A DNA stretch of 64,000 bases. Origin: Desulfobacterales bacterium. Lineage in GTDB: Bacteria; Desulfobacterota; Desulfobacteria; Desulfobacterales; JAQWFD01. Below are positions 21,200 through 37,400 of the stretch, piece after piece (position 1 is the first letter of the stretch; each line of letters begins with the position of its first letter). The stretch is from NCBI GenBank assembly GCA_028704555.1, contig JAQWFD010000001.1:69401-133400 (forward strand). Direction: 5' to 3'. The translations under genes and the position numbers were made by a program. The notes beneath the pieces were generated by a model. It was not told the DNA's origin. It did no database searches and saw only the letters and a program-made list of their open reading frames with translations.

Positions 21200-22393
21200 T
21201 TACTCAAGGATTTCACTTACAACACCAGCACCGACGGTCCGGCCACCTTCTCTGATTGCAAACCGAAGTTCTTTTTCCATTGCAATCGGAGTAATGAGCT
21301 CAGCCAAAATCGATACATTATCACCAGGCATTACCATCTCAACCCCATCCGGCAACGTGATCACTCCGGTTACATCCGTTGTACGGAAATAAAACTGCGG
21401 ACGGTATCCATTGAAAAACGGCGTGTGGCGTCCGCCCTCTTCTTTACTCAAAATATATGTCTCTGCCTTGAACCTCGTGTGAGGTGTAATCGATCCGGGC
21501 TTGGCTACTACCTGCCCGCGCTCAACCTCTTCTCTCTTGGTCCCCCGAAGCAGGACACCAATGTTGTCTCCGGCCTGTCCCTCATCCAGAAGTTTGCGGA
21601 ACATCTCCACTCCGGTACATACCGTCTTGACAGTCGGCCTGATTCCAACGATCTCCACATCTTCTCCGACCTTGATAATCCCCCGATCAACACGGCCGGT
21701 GACCACTGTCCCTCGTCCGGATATGCTGAACACATCTTCAATCGGCATCAAAAAAGGTTTGTCAACATCGCGTTCCGGCGCAGGAATATAGTTGTCGATT
21801 GCATCCATCAACTGGAATATGCATTTGGCCGCATCGCTGTCGGCATCATCGCTCTCCAGTGCCTTCAATGCGCTGCCGCGAATAATCGGAGTATCATCTC
21901 CCGGAAAATCATACTTGTCCAGAAGCTCTCGCATCTCAAGCTCAACCAGCTCAATCAACTCTTCATCATCGACCATATCGCATTTGTTCAAAAACACAAC
22001 GATCCGGGGAACACCGACCTGGCGAGCCAGCAATATATGCTCCCGGGTCTGCGGCATCGGTCCGTCATCAGCGCCAACCACCAGTATGGCTCCGTCCATC
22101 TGAGCGGCTCCGGTGATCATATTCTTGATATAGTCAGCATGGCCCGGACAGTCGACGTGCGCATAGTGCCGTTTTTCAGTTTCATATTCAACATGCGCGG
22201 TCGCAATCGTTATGCCCCGGGCTCTTTCTTCAGGCGCCTTATCAATCTGATCAAACGAAATAAAATCCGCCATCCCCTTCAAGCCCATATGCTTTGTAAT
22301 TGCTGCCGTCAAGGTCGTCTTCCCATGATCGATATGACCGATGGTACCCACATTCACATGAGGCTTTTTCCGCTCATACTTTGCCTTCGCCAT
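21200..22393 (-). CDS. tuf: elongation factor Tu (copy 1, str-operon position)
   Basis: 397-aa [34 protein letters not shown], with DCPGH and NKCD G-motifs. Lies directly downstream of rpsG with no fusA between. Confidence 0.97.
21205..22393 (-). repeat. ~1.19 kb direct repeat (tuf copy 1; partner at 36099..37287)
   Basis: The two tuf coding sequences read identically wherever I compared them. Their antisense ORF-track translations are also identical. Divergence begins only at the last sense codon (GAG TAA vs GAA TGA) and immediately upstream of the ATG. Confidence 0.85.
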
Positions 22394-22544
22394 TTTTCTT
22401 CCCTCCCCTTATCGCGGGATCTATACCTATCTTTCTTCATCCGAAGCTGTCAATAGACACTGTAAACTCCAGCCTCCGGAATAGAAATATAACTATGAGT
22501 TTTGCCGCACCTGCTTAAAACAAATTACACACAGGACCGTATCG

Positions 22545-23015
22545 TTACCATCTGAAATGAGCAAATGCCTTGTTCGCATCAGCCATTTTGTGGGTATCTT
22601 CTTTCTTTTTAACAGAAGCCCCTCTGCTGTTTGCCGCATCCATGAATTCACCCGCCAGTTTCTGCGCCATGGTTTTTTCCGAACGCTTGCGCGCAAAGCC
22701 AATGATCCACCTTATGGCAAGCGCCGTTCTGCGGGATGTTCGAATTTCTGTTGGAACCTGATACGTAGATCCGCCAACTCGACGCGACTTAACCTCAATC
22801 AACGGCCTCACGTTGTCCACGGCAGTCTCAAAAAGTTTGACAACCGATTCTTTTGTCTTGTTCTCCATTATGTCAAAAGACTCGTATATTATCGATTCTG
22901 CAAGACTTTTCTTGCCATCCCGCATTATACATTTAACAAATCTCGTGACCATCTTGCTGTTATATTTGGCATCAGGCGCTATCGGTCGCTCAGTGATTTC
23001 TCTTCTTCTTGGCAT
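22545..23015 (-). CDS. rpsG: 30S ribosomal protein S7
   Basis: 156-aa ORF, MPRRREITERPIAPDAKYNS. Confidence 0.95.
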   Translation of the reverse strand: MPRRREITERPIAPDAKYNSKMVTRFVKCIMRDGKKSLAESIIYESFDIMENKTKESVVKLFETAVDNVRPLIEVKSRRVGGSTYQVPTEIRTSRRTALAIRWIIGFARKRSEKTMAQKLAGEFMDAANSRGASVKKKEDTHKMADANKAFAHFRW

Positions 23016-23084
23016 AGCTTACACCATTTCCCCGTTTTTATTCGTTCTACTCCTGATTTTATATTCTATCTGAGTACATACAGG

Positions 23085-23456
23085 TTATTTAGGCTTTTTG
23101 GACCCGTACTTGGATCTGCTCTGCTTACGGTCTTCAACCCCCAAGGTATCCAATGTCCCCCTGACGATATGATATCTGACACCCGGCAAATCCTTAACTC
23201 GACCACCTCTTACCATTACAACCGAATGCTCCTGAAGATTATGTCCAATCCCTGGAATATAAGCTGCAACCTCGACGCCGGATGTCAGCCTGACCCTGGC
23301 AACCTTGCGCAATGCCGAGTTCGGTTTTTTAGGAGTCGTCGTATAAACCCTGGTACACACGCCTCTTTTTTGCGGTGCGCCTTTCAGCGCTGGCGTATTA
23401 CTTTTCTTCTCGATTTGTTTCCTACCGTTCCTGACTAACTGGTTTATGGTCGGCAT
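23085..23456 (-). CDS. rpsL: 30S ribosomal protein S12
   Basis: 123-aa [17 protein letters not shown]...[16 protein letters not shown]. Confidence 0.95.
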
Positions 23457-23750: not shown

Positions 23751-26700
23751 CTAAGGCATCTGAATCGACACATCATTGTACTGGGCCATCCCTGTTCCAG
23801 CCGGAATAAGCCTGCCCATAATCACATTTTCCTTTAAGCCCCTCAAGGTATCTAAAGCCCCTTCGATACTAGCATCTGTTAAAACCTTGGTTGTCTCCTG
23901 AAACGAAGCTGCAGAAATAAAGCTGTCTGTACTCAGCGATGCTTTGGTTATACCGAGGATCAGAGGCTCTGCGGAAGCCGGTTTACCACCTTTTGCTATA
24001 ACCTCGCTGTTAACTTCTTCGAATGTGGTTTTATCTACCTGCTCATCAACTATAAAATCCGTATCACCCGCATCACGAACCTTTACTCTCCTCATCATCT
24101 GACGAACAATAACCTCAATATGTTTATCGTTGATGCGGACGCCCTGAAGCCGATAGACTTCCTGAACTTCATCAACCAGGTACTTGGCCAGAGACACCTC
24201 TCCTTTTATATTGAGGATGTCCTGCGGATTGGCGGCCCCCCCAATCAATGGATCACCCGCCCGGACATAGTCCCCTTCATAAACATTAATATGTTTGCCG
24301 CGAGGTATAAGATATTCTTTCTTTTCTCCGACCTCTGCAGGGGTAATCGTAACCTTTTGCTTACCTTTTTTAGTACTCTTCATAATAGAGACATACCCGT
24401 CAATCTCACTTAAAACGGTTGCCTCTTTCGGTTTTCTGATCTCGAACAGTTCAGCGACACGTGGCAAACCACCCGTAATATCCTTTGTTTTAGTAGTTGC
24501 CCTAGGAATCTTTGCAATGACATCTCCCGCCTTAACATCACTTCCATCTTCCACCATCAAAATAGCGTCCGTCGGAAGGATATAACGTGCCATCCCCGAT
24601 GAAGTTGGAAGTTTAAGCGTTTTACCATCAGCGCCCTTAATGGAGATTCTCGGCCTCACATCCGTACTTTTCGACTCGATTACCGTTCGACTTGACTTTC
24701 CGGTAACCGGATCCACTTTCTCCTGAATTGTTTTACCAAGGGAAATATCTCCAAATTTAACTATTCCACCGACCTCGGTAACAATAGGCGTCGTAAAGGG
24801 ATCCCACGTCGCCAGAAGGTCTCCTGACGAAACTTTCTGACCATCGGCGACATTCAGCCGGGCTCCGTAAATGACTGGAAACCGTTCACGTTCCCTGCCC
24901 GCCTCGCCAACAACGGCGAACTCCCCTCCACGACGATTCATGACCACAATCTGATTTTCCGCATTTTTGACGGTATTAAGATCTATATATTTTATGATTC
25001 CGTCAACACGGGCTTTAATATCAGCCTGCTCAACTCTCCGACTGGCGGTTCCTCCGATATGAAATGTCCGCATGGTCAACTGCGTACCCGGCTCACCAAT
25101 CGATTGAGCGGCCAATATGCCCACGGCCTGACCGATTTCCACCCGAGCCCCGTGAGACAAATCACGTCCGTAACATTTAGTACATACGCCATATTTCGAT
25201 TTACATGTCAGTACAGAACGTATCTTAACGGTTGAGATTCCGAGTTCTTCAATTTTTTCGGCAAGGTTCTCATCAATTTCCTGACCGGCTCTGACAAGAA
25301 TTTCATCGGTAAATGGATCGAGTATATCTTCAACGGACACTCGACCGAGAATTCTTTCTCCTATCCGCTGAATAATTTCTCCACCCTCCATCAGAGGCTC
25401 AACCTCAACACCGAGCATGGTTCCGCAATCTTTTTCCATTACGATACAATCCTGAGCCACATCGGCAAGCCGTCGCGTCAGATAACCTGAGTTGGCTGTT
25501 TTTAAAGCGGTATCCGCCAGACCCTTTCTGGCACCGTGCGTGGAAATGAAATACTGCAAAACGGAAAGACCTTCCCGGAAATTCGCCGTAATCGGCGTTT
25601 CGATGATTTCACCGGAAGGTTTGGCCATCAACCCCCTCATTCCGGCCAGCTGCCGCATCTGATCTTTGCTCCCCCTGGCTCCGGAATCCGCCATCATATA
25701 GATGGAATTCAGATTACCTTTAAGCGGCGATCCGGATGCCGCTGTTTTATCATCGCCTTCGGAAGCCGGAGTCATCTTCATGGCCTCCATCATTTCATTT
25801 GCCACATCATCTGTTGCTTTTGCCCAGATATCGACAACTTTGTTATATTTTTCTCCCTGGGTAATCAGACCCTCGGTATACTGCCGGTTGATCTCGGTTA
25901 CCTGCTTTTCGGCGGTCGCCAGTATTTCAGTCTTGGCCTCCGGAATAATCATCGCGTCAATGGATATAGACAACCCACCGATAGTGGAATACTTATATCC
26001 GATATCTTTTAACCGATCCGCCAGTATGACCGTTGCCTTGGCCCCTAAATTCCGGTAAGCATAGTCCACAAGATCGCGTAATGCTTTTTTATCCATTAAG
26101 TTATTAATAATGTGAAACGGAATTTCCGGACGTTTGTTGACCACCTCAAACAAATGATACCCTTCATCAGCAACAAGGATACCGCTGACCTGATTCTTTT
26201 TCAGAGAAAAAACGCTGTCCGTCTCCTCCCCTGAAAAATCGAAAATTCTCTGGAACTCATCTTTTCTCAACAAACCGAGTTTACCGCCAAATTCTTTATC
26301 CGGGCTGATAGAATATTTATCCACAAGATCTTTAAAAGCGATACCGGATTCCAGCTCATCAAGCAGCGCCTCGGCCTCTTTACGGGTTCCTGTCTGAACA
26401 TGGCGCATTTCTATAACCGTATCTTTAGGAATAATTTCCCATAAAATAATACGGCCAACTGTGGTTTGAACCCTTTCACCGTATATTCGGACTATAATTT
26501 TGGCATGTAAATCAACAGCTTCTGCATCATATGCGGATCTGACCTCTCCTACATTGGAAAATATTTTTCCTTCACCAGTTAGGCCTTCAACCTCTCGGGT
26601 CATGTAATATATCCCCAGCACGATATCCTGTGTCGGCACTATAATAGGAGACCCATTCGCTGGGGACAGAATGTTGTTGCTTGACAGCATCAGGACGCGG

Positions 26701-28139
26701 GCTTCGATCTGAGACTCAACAGACAATGGGATATGAACCGCCATCTGGTCACCATCAAAGTCGGCATTAAAAGCCGTACACACCAGTGGATGAAGCTGAA
26801 TGGCTTTTCCTTCAATCAGCGTCGGTTCAAACGCCTGAATACCCAGGCGATGAAGCGTGGGAGCCCGGTTGAGAAGGACAGGGTATTCTCTAACCACTTC
26901 ATCCAGAGTATCCCACACTTCCGGTGTTTCACGCTCTACAAGCTTTTTTGCACTTTTTACGGTTGATACAAGCCCTTTTTGCTCCAGCCGGTAATATAAA
27001 AAAGGCTTGAACAATTCGAGTGCCATCTTTTTCGGAAGCCCGCATTGATGCAGCCTGAGATTTGGCCCGACCGTAATAACCGTTCGTCCGGAATAATCAA
27101 CTCGTTTACCCAGCAAGTTCTGGCGAAATCGCCCCTGCTTTCCTTTCAATGTATCACTCAGAGATTTCAGGGGACGTTTGTTGGTCCCGGTAATAACTCT
27201 TCCATGCCTGCCATTATCAAACAGCACATCAACCGATTCCTGAAGCATCCGTTTTTCATTTCGAACGATGATATCGGGTGCTTTTAAATCCATCAATCGT
27301 TTAAGTCTGTTATTCCGATTAATAACCCGGCGATAAAGATCATTGAGATCAGAGGTGGCAAACCGGCCGCCTTCAAGCGGAACCAACGGACGTAAATCCG
27401 GGGGCAATACGGGAATGACATCCATGATCATCCATACGGGATTGACTCCGGACCGGCACAATGCATCAACAATTTTCAATCGTTTTGCAAGTTTTTTACG
27501 TTTGGTCTCAGATGACGTTGTATTGATATCTTCCCTGAGTTCTTTATAAATCTCTTTCAGGTCCAGATTTTCGAGCATGCTTTTGACAGCTTCTGCTCCG
27601 ATGCCAACCTCGAATTTCGGCCCATAGAGTTCCAGCGCCTCGTGATATTTTTCATCGGACAAAAGCTGGAATTTCGCCAGGGGCGTATCTTTTGGATCCA
27701 AAACGACATAGCAGTCGAAATAAAGAATTTTCTCCATGCTCTTGAGCGTCATATCGAGCAGGTTGCCAATTTTACTTGGCAGACTTTTCAAAAACCATAT
27801 ATGAGCAGCGGGAGTGGCAAGTTCGATATGCCCCATCCGTTCCCTTCGAACCTTTGACTGTATGACTTCAACACCGCATTTTTCGCAGATTACTCCACGG
27901 TGTTTCATCCGTTTATATTTTCCGCAATTACATTCGTAATCCTTCGTTGGTCCGAAAATCTTGGCGCAAAACAGCCCATCACGCTCCGGCTTGAAGGTTC
28001 TGTAGTTAATCGTCTCCGGTTTTTTTATCTCCCCATGAGACCATTCCAGAATCTTCTCAGATGATGCCAAAGCAATCTTAACAGCCTTATAAAGTTTTGG
28101 GTCAATAGGTTTGGCGAAGAAATCGTATAATGTTTCCAA
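23751..28139 (-). CDS. rpoC: DNA-directed RNA polymerase subunit beta-prime, with extra parvulin-like segment
   Basis: 1462-aa ORF. N-terminal Zn site [20 protein letters not shown], catalytic NADFDGDQM at aa 458-466, SI3-like trigger-loop insert. About 100 additional residues (aa ~574-672) are absent from the E. coli alignment as I recall it. Confidence 0.97.
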
Positions 28140-36093: not shown

Positions 36094-37287
36094 TCATTCA
36101 AGGATTTCACTTACAACACCAGCACCGACGGTCCGGCCACCTTCTCTGATTGCAAACCGAAGTTCTTTTTCCATTGCAATCGGAGTAATGAGCTCAGCCA
36201 AAATCGATACATTATCACCAGGCATTACCATCTCAACCCCATCCGGCAACGTGATCACTCCGGTTACATCCGTTGTACGGAAATAAAACTGCGGACGGTA
36301 TCCATTGAAAAACGGCGTGTGGCGTCCGCCCTCTTCTTTACTCAAAATATATGTCTCTGCCTTGAACCTCGTGTGAGGTGTAATCGATCCGGGCTTGGCT
36401 ACTACCTGCCCGCGCTCAACCTCTTCTCTCTTGGTCCCCCGAAGCAGGACACCAATGTTGTCTCCGGCCTGTCCCTCATCCAGAAGTTTGCGGAACATCT
36501 CCACTCCGGTACATACCGTCTTGACAGTCGGCCTGATTCCAACGATCTCCACATCTTCTCCGACCTTGATAATCCCCCGATCAACACGGCCGGTGACCAC
36601 TGTCCCTCGTCCGGATATGCTGAACACATCTTCAATCGGCATCAAAAAAGGTTTGTCAACATCGCGTTCCGGCGCAGGAATATAGTTGTCGATTGCATCC
36701 ATCAACTGGAATATGCATTTGGCCGCATCGCTGTCGGCATCATCGCTCTCCAGTGCCTTCAATGCGCTGCCGCGAATAATCGGAGTATCATCTCCCGGAA
36801 AATCATACTTGTCCAGAAGCTCTCGCATCTCAAGCTCAACCAGCTCAATCAACTCTTCATCATCGACCATATCGCATTTGTTCAAAAACACAACGATCCG
36901 GGGAACACCGACCTGGCGAGCCAGCAATATATGCTCCCGGGTCTGCGGCATCGGTCCGTCATCAGCGCCAACCACCAGTATGGCTCCGTCCATCTGAGCG
37001 GCTCCGGTGATCATATTCTTGATATAGTCAGCATGGCCCGGACAGTCGACGTGCGCATAGTGCCGTTTTTCAGTTTCATATTCAACATGCGCGGTCGCAA
37101 TCGTTATGCCCCGGGCTCTTTCTTCAGGCGCCTTATCAATCTGATCAAACGAAATAAAATCCGCCATCCCCTTCAAGCCCATATGCTTTGTAATTGCTGC
37201 CGTCAAGGTCGTCTTCCCATGATCGATATGACCGATGGTACCCACATTCACATGAGGCTTTTTCCGCTCATACTTTGCCTTCGCCAT
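36094..37287 (-). CDS. tuf: elongation factor Tu (copy 2, tufB-like position)
   Basis: ORF track 36094..37308 trimmed to the ATG matching copy 1 ([12 protein letters not shown]). Protein identical to copy 1. Preceded by four tRNAs. Confidence 0.97.
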
Positions 37288-37400
37288 ATTCAATTCCTCC
37301 CCTGTCATTATTATACAAGCTATTATTGTCTTTTTAAAAATCAGTGTCTTCCCTGGTCATCGCTCCGCAGGAAAGACAATCCAGAAAACAAAGATTAAAC

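Follow-up and report, generated by a model that had tools for sequence, protein, structure and literature searches.

A parvulin-type fold inserted within the RNA polymerase β′ subunit of a Desulfosarcina-centred clade

Results

An additional segment in RpoC

The window, a stretch of 64,000 nucleotides from contig JAQWFD010000001.1 of a Desulfobacterales bacterium, encodes on its minus strand the RNA polymerase β′ subunit, within which we delimited a segment having a parvulin fold (Table 1). In a pairwise alignment this RpoC is 59% identical to that of E. coli and, the parvulin insert excepted, collinear with it, including SI3; apart from the +99 of the window, the only indels of six or more residues are two on the E. 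coli side, of +7 and +6. Alignment to the solved β′ chains and to E. coli rpoC places 98–99 additional residues between E. coli β′ G586 and L587. The solved β′ chains all align as two blocks flanking the insert, which is absent from every solved RNA polymerase.

The host loop lies in the pore-1 domain (Pfam RNA_pol_Rpb1_3), at the boundary of β′-bD4 and β′-uD3: the N-side junction corresponds to the end of β′-bD4, or the first half of the pore-1 domain, and on the C side I673-P674-F675 align with E. coli L587-P588-Y589. In relatives that lack the insert, YEIIPE is followed directly by VIPF, so that the sequence runs uninterrupted across the insertion site. The segment is thus an extra domain in an otherwise collinear β′, as are other lineage-specific β′ insertions.

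An earlier note on this DNA, made from the letters alone, had reported about 100 extra residues at 26124-26420. This range (minus strand) corresponds to RpoC aa 574–672 and the sequence quoted was exact; we refined the boundaries to aa 573–670 and the number of extra residues to 98–99. The alignment also bears out the E. coli numbering that it had given for the NADFDGD motif (aa 458–464).

Table 1. Coordinates of rpoC, the insertion and its main elements in the window
Feature	RpoC residues	Position in window	Strand	Basis
rpoC (RNA polymerase β′, 1462 aa, TTG start)		23751..28139	-	ORF list; Pfam Rpb1 domains 1-5
N-side junction WEIIPK (= E. coli W580-K585)	567-572	26424..26441	-	Alignment
Parvulin-fold insertion (98 aa)	573-670	26130..26423	-	Pfam, AlphaFold, Foldseek, boundary alignments
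First parvulin histidine (Par10 H8 / Pin1 H59)	His580	26400..26402	-	MAFFT alignment
Serine at catalytic Cys/Asp position (Par10 C40, Pin1 C113, PrsA Asp)	Ser612	26304..26306	-	Alignment
Start of helix α3, two positions past lost catalytic site	Asp614	26298..26300	-	Counts; model
KDEFQRIF, best-conserved element of the insert family	626-633	26241..26264	-	Alignments, family counts
DFSGEETD, acidic family-specific extra segment (7-8 residues)	634-641	26217..26240	-	MAFFT with Par10, PrsA, Pin1
Alanine at H-bond-network Thr position (Par10 T79 / Pin1 T152)	Ala657	26169..26171	-	Alignment
Second parvulin histidine (Par10 H84 / Pin1 H157), in GYHLFEV	His662	26154..26156	-	Alignment
C-side junction PEIPF, where the pore-1 domain picks up again	671-675	26115..26129	-	Alignment

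The insert has a complete parvulin fold

Three lines of evidence, namely Pfam scores, a confident AlphaFold model and a fold search that returned parvulins only, confirm that a complete parvulin (PpiC-type) fold is inserted within β′. For PF13616 (Rotamase_3; cut-off 22.5), the full RpoC reaches 34.4 bits and the segment taken by itself 40.1 bits (E 6e-10); PF00639 (Rotamase) scores 34.1 and 39.6 bits, respectively (cut-off 21.7); and PF13145 reaches 28.9 bits on the isolated segment (cut-off 27). In a profile search of the PDB, a profile from 16 insert copies matched B. subtilis PrsA at E 2e-11; the copies were trimmed to the insert for this search, an alignment bearing the flanks having been swamped by β′ chains.

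The AlphaFold model of the insert (pLDDT 93.9, pTM 0.85) has the element order β1-α1-α2-α3-β2-α4a-α4b-β3-β4, and this predicted structure contains the four-stranded antiparallel sheet and helices (β-α3-β-α-β2) of the parvulin superfamily. Foldseek was run with the insert-only model, a 281-residue fragment model having given mostly β′ matches. Its top 50 matches were all parvulins, with TM scores of 0.73–0.84 for the top matches; the predicted model superposes on PrsA with TM 0.75–0.84 and an rmsd of 2.0–2.6 Å, followed by SurA, PpiD, Par14 and Pin1. Folds of the SBHM/HABAS, BEAN (BBM2) or sLC type were not among the matches of this fold search. Hence the earlier note had rightly set the insert apart from SBHM-type insertions, and the rotamase HMM search that it proposed gave scores above the cut-offs for all three families. 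The motif-by-motif match that it drew with E. coli PpiC/Par10 reappears in our alignment, for which the Par10 sequence was checked against 1JNS, including the two histidines, H580 and H662, and the serine, Ser612, in place of Cys40.

Sequence searches differed in what they could reveal. With the insert alone as query, a word-indexed protein search gave no match, and with the insert plus flanks it returned gene fragments only; it was the full-length RpoC query that revealed the family. An exhaustive search of 50% clusters, which informs on fragments and free parvulins only since full-length RpoCs are merged there with insert-less ones, found the nearest free parvulins to be 29–46% identical to the insert.

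The insert is fixed in a Desulfosarcina-centred clade

An RpoC identical over all 1462 residues occurs in three independent assemblies. The insert is present at the identical site in all 120 closest full-length RpoCs, with a length of 98–106 aa (98–99 aa in 117 of them), and in 47 further metagenome loci; nested length changes were seen in L003 (+26 aa) and P0006 (-13 aa). A scan of GTDB genomes by exact 8-mer peptide matches to the window identified at least five carriers, a count that is not a measure of rarity. Cultured carriers are Desulfosarcina ovata, D. cetonica and Desulfatitalea alkaliphila, and the complete genomes of D. ovata (7.6 and 8.3 Mb) have the insert at the same site. All named carriers are Desulfobacterales/Desulfosarcinaceae or symbiont relatives of these, and none of the 120 closest RpoCs shows a secondary loss. 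Across these 120 RpoCs and 47 metagenome loci, the insert is fixed and vertically inherited in a Desulfosarcina-centred clade.

The metagenome scan used a six-sequence alignment that selects on the DEFxRIF motif, and the conservation of this motif in L011–L058 is therefore partly due to ascertainment; the unbiased conservation figures, given below, are those from the 120 closest full-length RpoCs. An intein, a mobile element, a repeat and a compositional anomaly were considered and dropped, as the segment is a plain parvulin of normal GC and ancient divergence.

Active-site residues are replaced while the scaffold and pocket persist

Both parvulin histidines are present in the window and in 111 of the 120 RpoCs, and are lost in some lineages. 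The His580 position is occupied by histidine in 112 of the 120 (Q or R in the remainder) and by R or C in lineage L047–L055; the His662 position is histidine in 118 of the 120, asparagine in lineage L047–L055 and serine in L038. Together with Gly619 and Gly622, these histidines make up the scaffold that is kept. The hydrophobic proline pocket (L49, M57 and F61 in Par10; L122, M130 and F134 in Pin1) is likewise present: the L621 position is I or L in 112 of the 120, and F629 and F633 fall at the M57 and F61 positions of Par10 in the MAFFT alignment, HMMER and MAFFT placing this region differently. F629 is found in 106 of the 120, and the F633 position holds an aromatic residue in 115 (F in 100, Y in 15).

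Conversely, the catalytic residue of an active PPIase (Cys in Par10 and Pin1, Asp in PrsA and Par14) is replaced by serine in the window, and across the 120 RpoCs this position is S (70), A (35), G (8) or D (4) but never C, with Ser, Ala or Gly accounting for 113. The H-bond-network threonine is absent from the window, its position being A in 52, S in 28 and T in 20 family members. At the position of Par10 F81 the window has Glu659, and the family D, G, E or S, in place of an aromatic residue; in E. coli, the F81A replacement removes the PPIase activity of PpiC (PMC7353009). Variable residues also stand in place of the Asp of the GGDLG motif.

The conserved residues that are particular to the insert family are largely charged. 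Asp614 is nearly invariant (110 of 120), and in KDEFQRIF the conserved charged residues E628 (113 of 120) and R631 adjoin the cleft; with R579 they form a charged rim that clusters at the former active-site cleft. The acidic segment that follows divides parvulin helix α4 in two (H56-63 and H67-74 in the model), and the HMMER alignment shows a five-residue insertion in this region. The net charge of the insert copies has a median of -8 (range -14 to +1). As the linkers by which the insert is attached comprise three residues or fewer, and H580 and H662 sit in the model 7–8 residues along β1 and β4 from the attachment points, the cleft likely points away from the core.

The insert is under purifying selection

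The rate of evolution of the insert is about twice that of the core; median identity is 41–43% in the insert compared to 72–83% in the flanks. We estimated dN/dS from close pairs, deep pairs being saturated. For L004/L005, it was 0.12 in the insert versus 0.04 in the remaining RpoC. The strongest purifying selection (insert dN/dS 0.03–0.09) was found in the lineage that lacks both histidines, and values of 0.2–0.85 (from small counts) in the histidine-bearing lineage L019–L036 indicate that constraint is uneven. The insert is thus under purifying selection, even in the sub-lineage without both histidines.

Discussion

A docking module on the secondary-channel face

The reading that we prefer, and hold with evenly divided confidence, is that the insert serves for peptide docking on the pore-1 (secondary-channel) domain and has no catalytic activity, or a weak one at most. 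Judging from the residues at the former active site, its canonical prolyl isomerase function appears to be no longer present. Most likely, a chaperone of the PrsA/SurA type donated its insertable parvulin domain, which would have been acquired once in an ancestor of the Desulfosarcina-centred Desulfobacterales clade and inherited vertically from then on. The insert no longer has the catalytic Cys/Asp, the Thr of the network or a counterpart of Par10 F81, but it has kept the scaffold and the hydrophobic pocket (I/L621, F629, F633), and next to the former active-site cleft it has gained the conserved charged rim (R579, D614, E628, R631) and an additional acidic helix; it is from these losses, retentions and gains that the docking reading is drawn. 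The outcome would be a rigidly tethered acidic module, displayed on what the domain assignment suggests is the secondary-channel face of the enzyme, that may bind a putative partner protein by a segment which is hydrophobic or contains proline and is probably basic. Such a partner may be an elongation factor, a factor acting at the secondary channel or some other component of the transcription machinery, and the module would adjust the access of factors to the polymerase in the Desulfosarcina-centred clade.

The same domain assignment serves to estimate where the insert lies with respect to the secondary channel, ω, SI3 and the rim helices, and textual sources hint at a possible analogy with Rpb8/pore-1 for this placement. 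Gre, DksA and other secondary-channel factors act on the pore-1 side. Moreover, there is precedent for docking: in PrsA, SurA and PpiD, too, the parvulin domain is an insertion, and SurA P1 and the PpiD domain are reported to bind peptides while being inactive as PPIases; the insert resembles the parvulin domains of SurA and PpiD in fold (Foldseek). Two observations count against docking: (i) both histidines in 111 of the 120 RpoCs and an intact pocket are equally expected of an active enzyme; and (ii) constraint is uneven, given the high dN/dS, from small counts, in L019–L036. In addition, some activity may persist with serine in place of Cys, and Asp614 might make up for the lost catalytic residue.

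Alternative readings

The insert may instead be a structural passenger, a stable domain that is tolerated in a permissive surface loop and retained only since its misfolding or deletion harms β′, or else a cis brace on the core, in either case with no ligand in trans. We regard this as possible but doubtful. It would account for an insert that diverges much faster than the core, for the nested changes tolerated in L003 and P0006 and for a dN/dS of up to 0.85 in one lineage; moreover, lineage-specific insertions, an archaeal-specific domain and the cyanobacterial β′ split are all known from the region of the site. However, a tolerated passenger is difficult to reconcile with a length held at 98–99 aa in nearly all copies, with dN/dS values as low as 0.03–0.09, with the lack of secondary loss among the 120 closest RpoCs and with conserved charged surface residues that cluster around the former cleft, conservation not being confined to the core of the domain.

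It seems unlikely to us that the insert is a functional built-in prolyl isomerase. Its substrates would be prolines of RNA polymerase itself, of σ or elongation factors, or of peptides being made while transcription and translation are coupled, and it would correspond, in cis and in bacteria, to Pin1/Ess1 acting on the Pol II CTD. In favour of this reading, the fold is complete by AlphaFold and Foldseek, the histidines and pocket residues are conserved, and serine is chemically nearer to cysteine than alanine is. Furthermore, parvulin clients do exist in the transcription machinery, since the free parvulin PpiC of E. coli pulls down NusG, Rho, SuhB and RpoA (PMC7353009). The isomerase reading is nevertheless weakened because neither the Cys/Asp position (never Cys), nor the network Thr (mostly Ala or Ser), nor the equivalent of Par10 F81 (D, G or E, at a position where F81A inactivates PpiC; PMC7353009) is conserved, and because the sub-lineage that lacks both histidines is under the strongest purifying selection; the GGDLG Asp has also given way to variable residues, and the substrate-site region in α4 has been remodelled by the acidic extra segment. 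The more specific proposal of a working or substrate-trapping prolyl-isomerase module beside the secondary channel, which would couple a proline switch, located in a transcription factor or in the polymerase itself, to factor cycling, we consider quite improbable.

A nucleic-acid-binding role, such as has been suggested for eukaryotic Par14, in which the insert would contact DNA or RNA close to the polymerase, is very improbable: the parvulins Par14/Par17 do bind DNA (PMC1420321), but the insert has no basic extension, its copies are net acidic, which makes RNA docking unlikely, and by its domain assignment the pore-1 periphery would lie off the path of DNA and exiting RNA. The earlier note had offered a built-in isomerase or a protein/RNA docking module as possible functions; of these, protein or peptide docking is now the best reading.

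An artefact of assembly, which the earlier note had named as a concern, or one of annotation, or a contig that is a chimera of a parvulin gene and rpoC, is of negligible probability, being refuted by a continuous, uninterrupted reading frame, the identical protein in three independent assemblies, the same site in complete D. ovata genomes of cultured origin and in more than 150 other sequences, and a GC content of 0.439 for the insert versus 0.461 for the gene.

Comparison with known systems

The carriers, Desulfosarcina and its relatives, play a major part in marine sulfate reduction, act as partners in the anaerobic oxidation of hydrocarbons and methane, and live as symbionts of gutless worms; we know of no study of their transcription apparatus. 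The insert is a clean synapomorphy for its clade, and the cultured, fully sequenced carriers make it open to direct biochemistry and cryo-EM.

Lineage-specific inserts such as E. coli SI3 are regulatory handles on RNA polymerase and, to our knowledge, the well-characterised β′ inserts are all made from a few β-rich modules (SBHM/HABAS, BEAN). Like SI3/β′In6 of E. coli and β′In2 of Thermus, the parvulin insert forms an entire folded domain within a surface loop of a collinear, highly conserved β′, and it shares with lineage-specific β′ insertions the restriction to one lineage, the faster evolution relative to the core and the short linkers. The β′-bD4 region is one of seven insertion locations in the 2024 β′ catalogue, which lists HABAS, BEAN and sLC folds only. 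Unlike these, the present insert is an α/β parvulin of the PPIase superfamily and originates from an enzyme/chaperone family. A parvulin or rotamase insert is absent from the 2024 catalogue and its supplements, and we found no published description of a β′ parvulin insert in the literature searched; it is a variant of the lineage-specific RNA polymerase insertion. Thus the expectation that a rotamase fold in the core enzyme would be unusual, and not already catalogued, holds as far as the fold is concerned, which is new to the 2024 catalogue, but not as regards rarity, given its fixation across the clade. It follows that core RNA polymerase can also take up a domain that belongs to the machinery of protein folding.

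PrsA, SurA (P1, P2) and PpiD, which match the insert best in both sequence and structure, likewise carry a parvulin cassette between other domains. Their hosts are periplasmic or extracytoplasmic folding factors, whereas the host of the insert is a cytoplasmic polymerase. Unlike these parvulins, the insert has lost both the GGDLG Asp and the catalytic Asp, and it has a family-specific (K/R)xDEFxRIF motif followed by the acidic addition of 7–8 residues. E. coli PpiC/Par10, a cytoplasmic single-domain parvulin, has the same size and fold; however, its C40, T79 and F81 are S, A and E in the insert, and Par10 is free and active, whereas the insert is covalently part of β′. If our preferred docking reading is correct, the insert would be a natural case of a PPIase fold moving from catalysis toward binding.

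Pin1 and Ess1 are separate proteins that are recruited by a WW domain to phospho-Ser-Pro repeats. In concept only, the insert resembles their association with the Pol II CTD, in that a parvulin-fold module is tied to a multisubunit RNA polymerase (PMC7994582, PMC4350670). Unlike Pol II, bacterial β′ has no CTD, and the insert lacks both the basic phosphate-binding loop and the catalytic Cys of Pin1. Should the isomerase or substrate-trapping reading prove true, the insert would represent a cis-encoded bacterial analogue of the relationship between Pin1/Ess1 and Pol II, and the first enzyme-derived regulatory domain within a bacterial core enzyme.

Boundaries and predicted fold of the insert

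On the minus strand of the window, rpoC lies in the usual gene block rpoB-rpoC-rpsL-rpsG-tuf. Its product is 59% identical to E. coli RpoC, and in the pairwise alignment a 99-residue block falls between E. coli G586 and L587; the only two other indels of at least six residues are E. coli-specific (7 and 6 aa). HMMER likewise aligned the solved β′ chains as two blocks either side of this segment. Translation and both alignments thus confirm the extra segment described in the earlier note, which had placed it at RpoC aa 574-672, quoted a translation identical to ours, and correctly gave NADFDGD its E. coli position, aa 458-464. Just ahead of the insertion point, the β′-bD4 hairpin is 13 residues shorter than E. 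coli β′ 554-571, a difference that we consider unrelated to the insert since insert-less Desulfobacterota fragments are likewise short there.

Within the gene block, tuf directly follows rpsL-rpsG (21200-23438) and, unlike in the classical str operon, no fusA (EF-G) lies between S7 and EF-Tu. The S12-S7-EF-Tu order was likewise called in three assemblies with an identical RpoC. A second tuf copy follows a tRNA Thr-Tyr-Gly-Thr cluster.

Coordinates of the features, and insert residues aligned with parvulin active-site positions (counts among 120 RpoCs)
Feature	Window nt or RpoC residue	Strand	Description
rpoC	23751-28139	minus	1462 aa, TTG start
Insert proper	26130-26423	minus	RpoC aa 573-670; flanks WEIIPK and PEIPF
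β′-bD4 hairpin	26442-26520		RpoC aa 541-566
tuf	21200-22393	minus	first copy
tuf	36094-37308		second copy
Par10 H8	H580		H 112/120
Par10 H84	H662		H 118/120
Par10 L49	L621		I/L 112/120
Par10 M57	F629		F 106/120 (equivalence less certain)
Par10 F61	F633		F/Y 115/120 (equivalence less certain)
GxxG motif Gly	G619, G622		G 120/120 each
Par10 C40 / PrsA Asp	S612		S 70, A 35, G 8, D 4, C 0
Asp of GGDLG	K620		variable
Par10 T79 / Pin1 T152	A657		A 52, S 28, T 20
Par10 F81	E659		D/G/E/S

The Pfam rotamase models scored above their curated cut-offs: PF13616 gave 34.4 bits in full RpoC, and for the segment by itself the scores were 40.1 bits (PF13616, E 6e-10), 39.6 bits (PF00639) and 28.9 bits (PF13145). 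The single insert sequence matched B. subtilis PrsA and E. coli Par10 (PpiC) in the PDB, and with a profile of 16 insert copies the PrsA match rose to E 2e-11. AlphaFold models, for which the input alignment consisted of metagenomic homologues, reached a pLDDT of 84-96 for the insert within a 281-residue fragment, and a mean pLDDT of 93.9 (pTM 0.85) for the insert alone; in the latter model, strands span residues 4-13, 50-55, 85-87 and 90-101, with helices between them. Foldseek matched the insert model only to parvulin domains in the PDB (PrsA, SurA, PpiD, NmPin, Par14, Par10 and Pin1; best TM 0.73-0.84), and neither an SBHM-like nor any other non-parvulin fold was among these matches. By HMM score and predicted fold, the insert is therefore a member of the parvulin superfamily, as the earlier note had proposed.

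The best free-standing matches (P0026, P0029, P0030 and P0035) look like secreted proteins or lipoproteins and contain 2-5 canonical parvulin domains in tandem, in which GGDLG and the catalytic Cys are intact; they are ~29-34% identical to the insert, and their family is a possible donor.

Occurrence among genomes and metagenomes

The same 1462-aa RpoC is present in three independent assemblies: GCA_028701075.1 (121-kb contig), GCA_028684125.1 and ENA ERZ27250894. A genome scan requiring exact 8-mer matches, and hence yielding a lower bound, located the insert, always at this position, in at least five GTDB species representatives, including the cultured Desulfatitalea alkaliphila (Desulfosarcinaceae). 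Scanning metagenomes with one motif gave 50 loci, 47 of which are rpoC genes carrying the insert at its usual position. A full-length query returned 120 RpoCs of 1457-1483 aa, and all 120 matches listed have a 98-106 aa insert at the site. Among the carriers are two subspecies of Desulfosarcina ovata (ovata and sediminis; complete genomes, UniRef100_A0A5K8AIR0), D. cetonica, uncultured Desulfosarcina and an Olavius algarvensis δ-symbiont. In the same searches, insert-less relatives, in which YEIIPE runs uninterrupted into VIPF, were clearly more distant.

Active-site residues

All copies were aligned with Par10 (sequence identical to PDB 1JNS), B. subtilis PrsA and Pin1, and residues were counted in the unbiased set of 120 RpoCs. 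The equivalence of M57 and F61 is less certain than the other assignments because HMMER and MAFFT place an acidic segment slightly differently; this stretch of 7-8 residues after F633 splits helix α4 in two. Newly conserved in the insert are R579 (107/120), D614 (110/120), E628 (113/120) and R631 (79/120), and all copies are acidic (median net charge -8).

The parvulin catalytic core is a Cys/Asp-His-His-Thr network, for whose two histidines a structural role has been argued, and SurA P1 and PpiD are reported to be binders without PPIase activity. Together with the pattern of conserved residues, this suggests that the scaffold and pocket are retained and the chemistry lost. As the insert departs from active PPIases at three positions (Cys/Asp, Thr and F81), we do not class it as an enzyme. 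In PpiC, F81A abolishes PPIase activity (PMC7353009).

Sequence evolution and selection

The insert evolves much faster than its surroundings: it is 33-45% identical among six full-length genes, compared with 79-83% for the remaining RpoC; median identities are 43% vs 83% for the flanks among 34 non-redundant copies, and 41% vs 72% for 100 flanking residues in the unbiased set. Despite this rapid change, its length is 98-99 aa in 117 of 120 RpoCs. Nei-Gojobori dN/dS, restricted to pairs with unsaturated dS, indicated purifying selection throughout, albeit of uneven strength: 0.10-0.12 in several pairs, 0.2-0.85 in the lineage of loci L019-L036 (small counts), and 0.03-0.09 in that of L047-L055 (0.015-0.04 for flanking β′). 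Selection is thus strongest in L047-L055, where both histidines are replaced (His1 by R/C, His2 by N), so that it cannot be preserving canonical parvulin catalysis there; the insert's function may be more important, or altered, in this sub-lineage. L047 and L049-L055 are JGI metagenome contigs (match at ~2501-2791) with LRRIMV/LCRIMV and YNIF at the histidine sites.

In a Desulfobacterales MAG (L003:6001-6435), a 26-residue addition, RYREWKKEFDSRNVDEDGSAGTVFVP, is nested in the α1-α2 loop, indicating that this loop is solvent-exposed and permissive. Three metagenomic RpoC fragments have strongly eroded inserts: in P0005 both histidines and the GxxG motif are missing, P0006 is ~13 residues short in the α2 region and has no His2, and P0014 has Tyr at His1. 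Judging from these sequences, the domain may be decaying or repurposed in such lineages. Overall, the insert is a real, clade-wide and selected feature.

Position on the polymerase and putative function

The insert interrupts the match to Pfam RNA_pol_Rpb1_3 (pore-1), which therefore comes in two parts. The helix that follows it (E. coli ~588-612) presumably leads to the ppGpp site-1 residues K615, I619, D622 and Y626, a numbering that agrees with our pairwise E. coli alignment, and we take the rim helices to start ~60 residues beyond. In yeast Rpb1, a eukaryote/archaea-specific β-rich segment presumably starts directly after the homologous IPNG; Pol II pore 1 may form one rigid module together with Rpb8. 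With linkers of at most three residues, and each histidine 7-8 residues away from its attachment point along β1 or β4, the former active-site cleft of the modelled fold should face away from the core. In the domain scheme of Alvarez-Carreño et al. (2024), the insertion site lies where the bacteria-specific β′-bD4 adjoins the universal β′-uD3 (its second half), in a region that accepts lineage-specific insertions and also holds the archaeal-specific β′-aD2 domain and the cyanobacterial β′ split.

In the best-supported reading, to which we give roughly even chances, the insert is an acidic module, rigidly attached, that binds peptides. With its retained hydrophobic pocket and new charged rim, it would dock a partner segment that is hydrophobic or contains proline, and is probably basic, on the polymerase's secondary-channel side. 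Docking is also the most likely of the functions suggested in the earlier note. A structural passenger or brace without ligand would fit the fast evolution and the permissive site, but the fixed length, the low dN/dS and a surface conservation centred on the cleft make this rather improbable. That the domain is a genuinely active isomerase, as the note had also suggested, is doubtful: histidines, pocket and Ser are retained and E. coli PpiC has transcription-related clients (PMC7353009), but the catalytic residues (Cys/Asp, Thr and F81) are lost and a His-less lineage exists. Nucleic-acid binding, including the RNA docking considered in the note, is very unlikely given the acidic charge. An artefact is refuted by the recurrence of the protein in three independent assemblies and of the same-site insert in the complete D. 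ovata genomes.

Relation to known insertions

Full-text literature searches found no paper in which rpoC or the RNA polymerase of Desulfobacterales is tied to a domain of the parvulin, rotamase or PpiC kind, and none of these terms occurs in the 2024 catalogue of Alvarez-Carreño et al. or its supplements. Automatic Pfam annotation of public sequences already displays the parvulin-in-RpoC architecture, so the data are public although the insert, going by these searches and this catalogue, appears not to have been described previously. A precomputed rotamase match exists for only about half of the RpoCs that carry the insert (P0175-P0294), although it is full-length in them; it is thus often too diverged for automatic annotation, and Pfam-based domain-architecture surveys would undercount it.

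By the defining features examined, the insert is a lineage-specific β′ insertion. It differs from the catalogued β′ inserts in fold, which is SBHM/HABAS, BEAN or sLC in each of them. In its logic, the proposed docking would be comparable to that of SI3, the lineage-specific insertion of E. coli β′, which modulates factor action.
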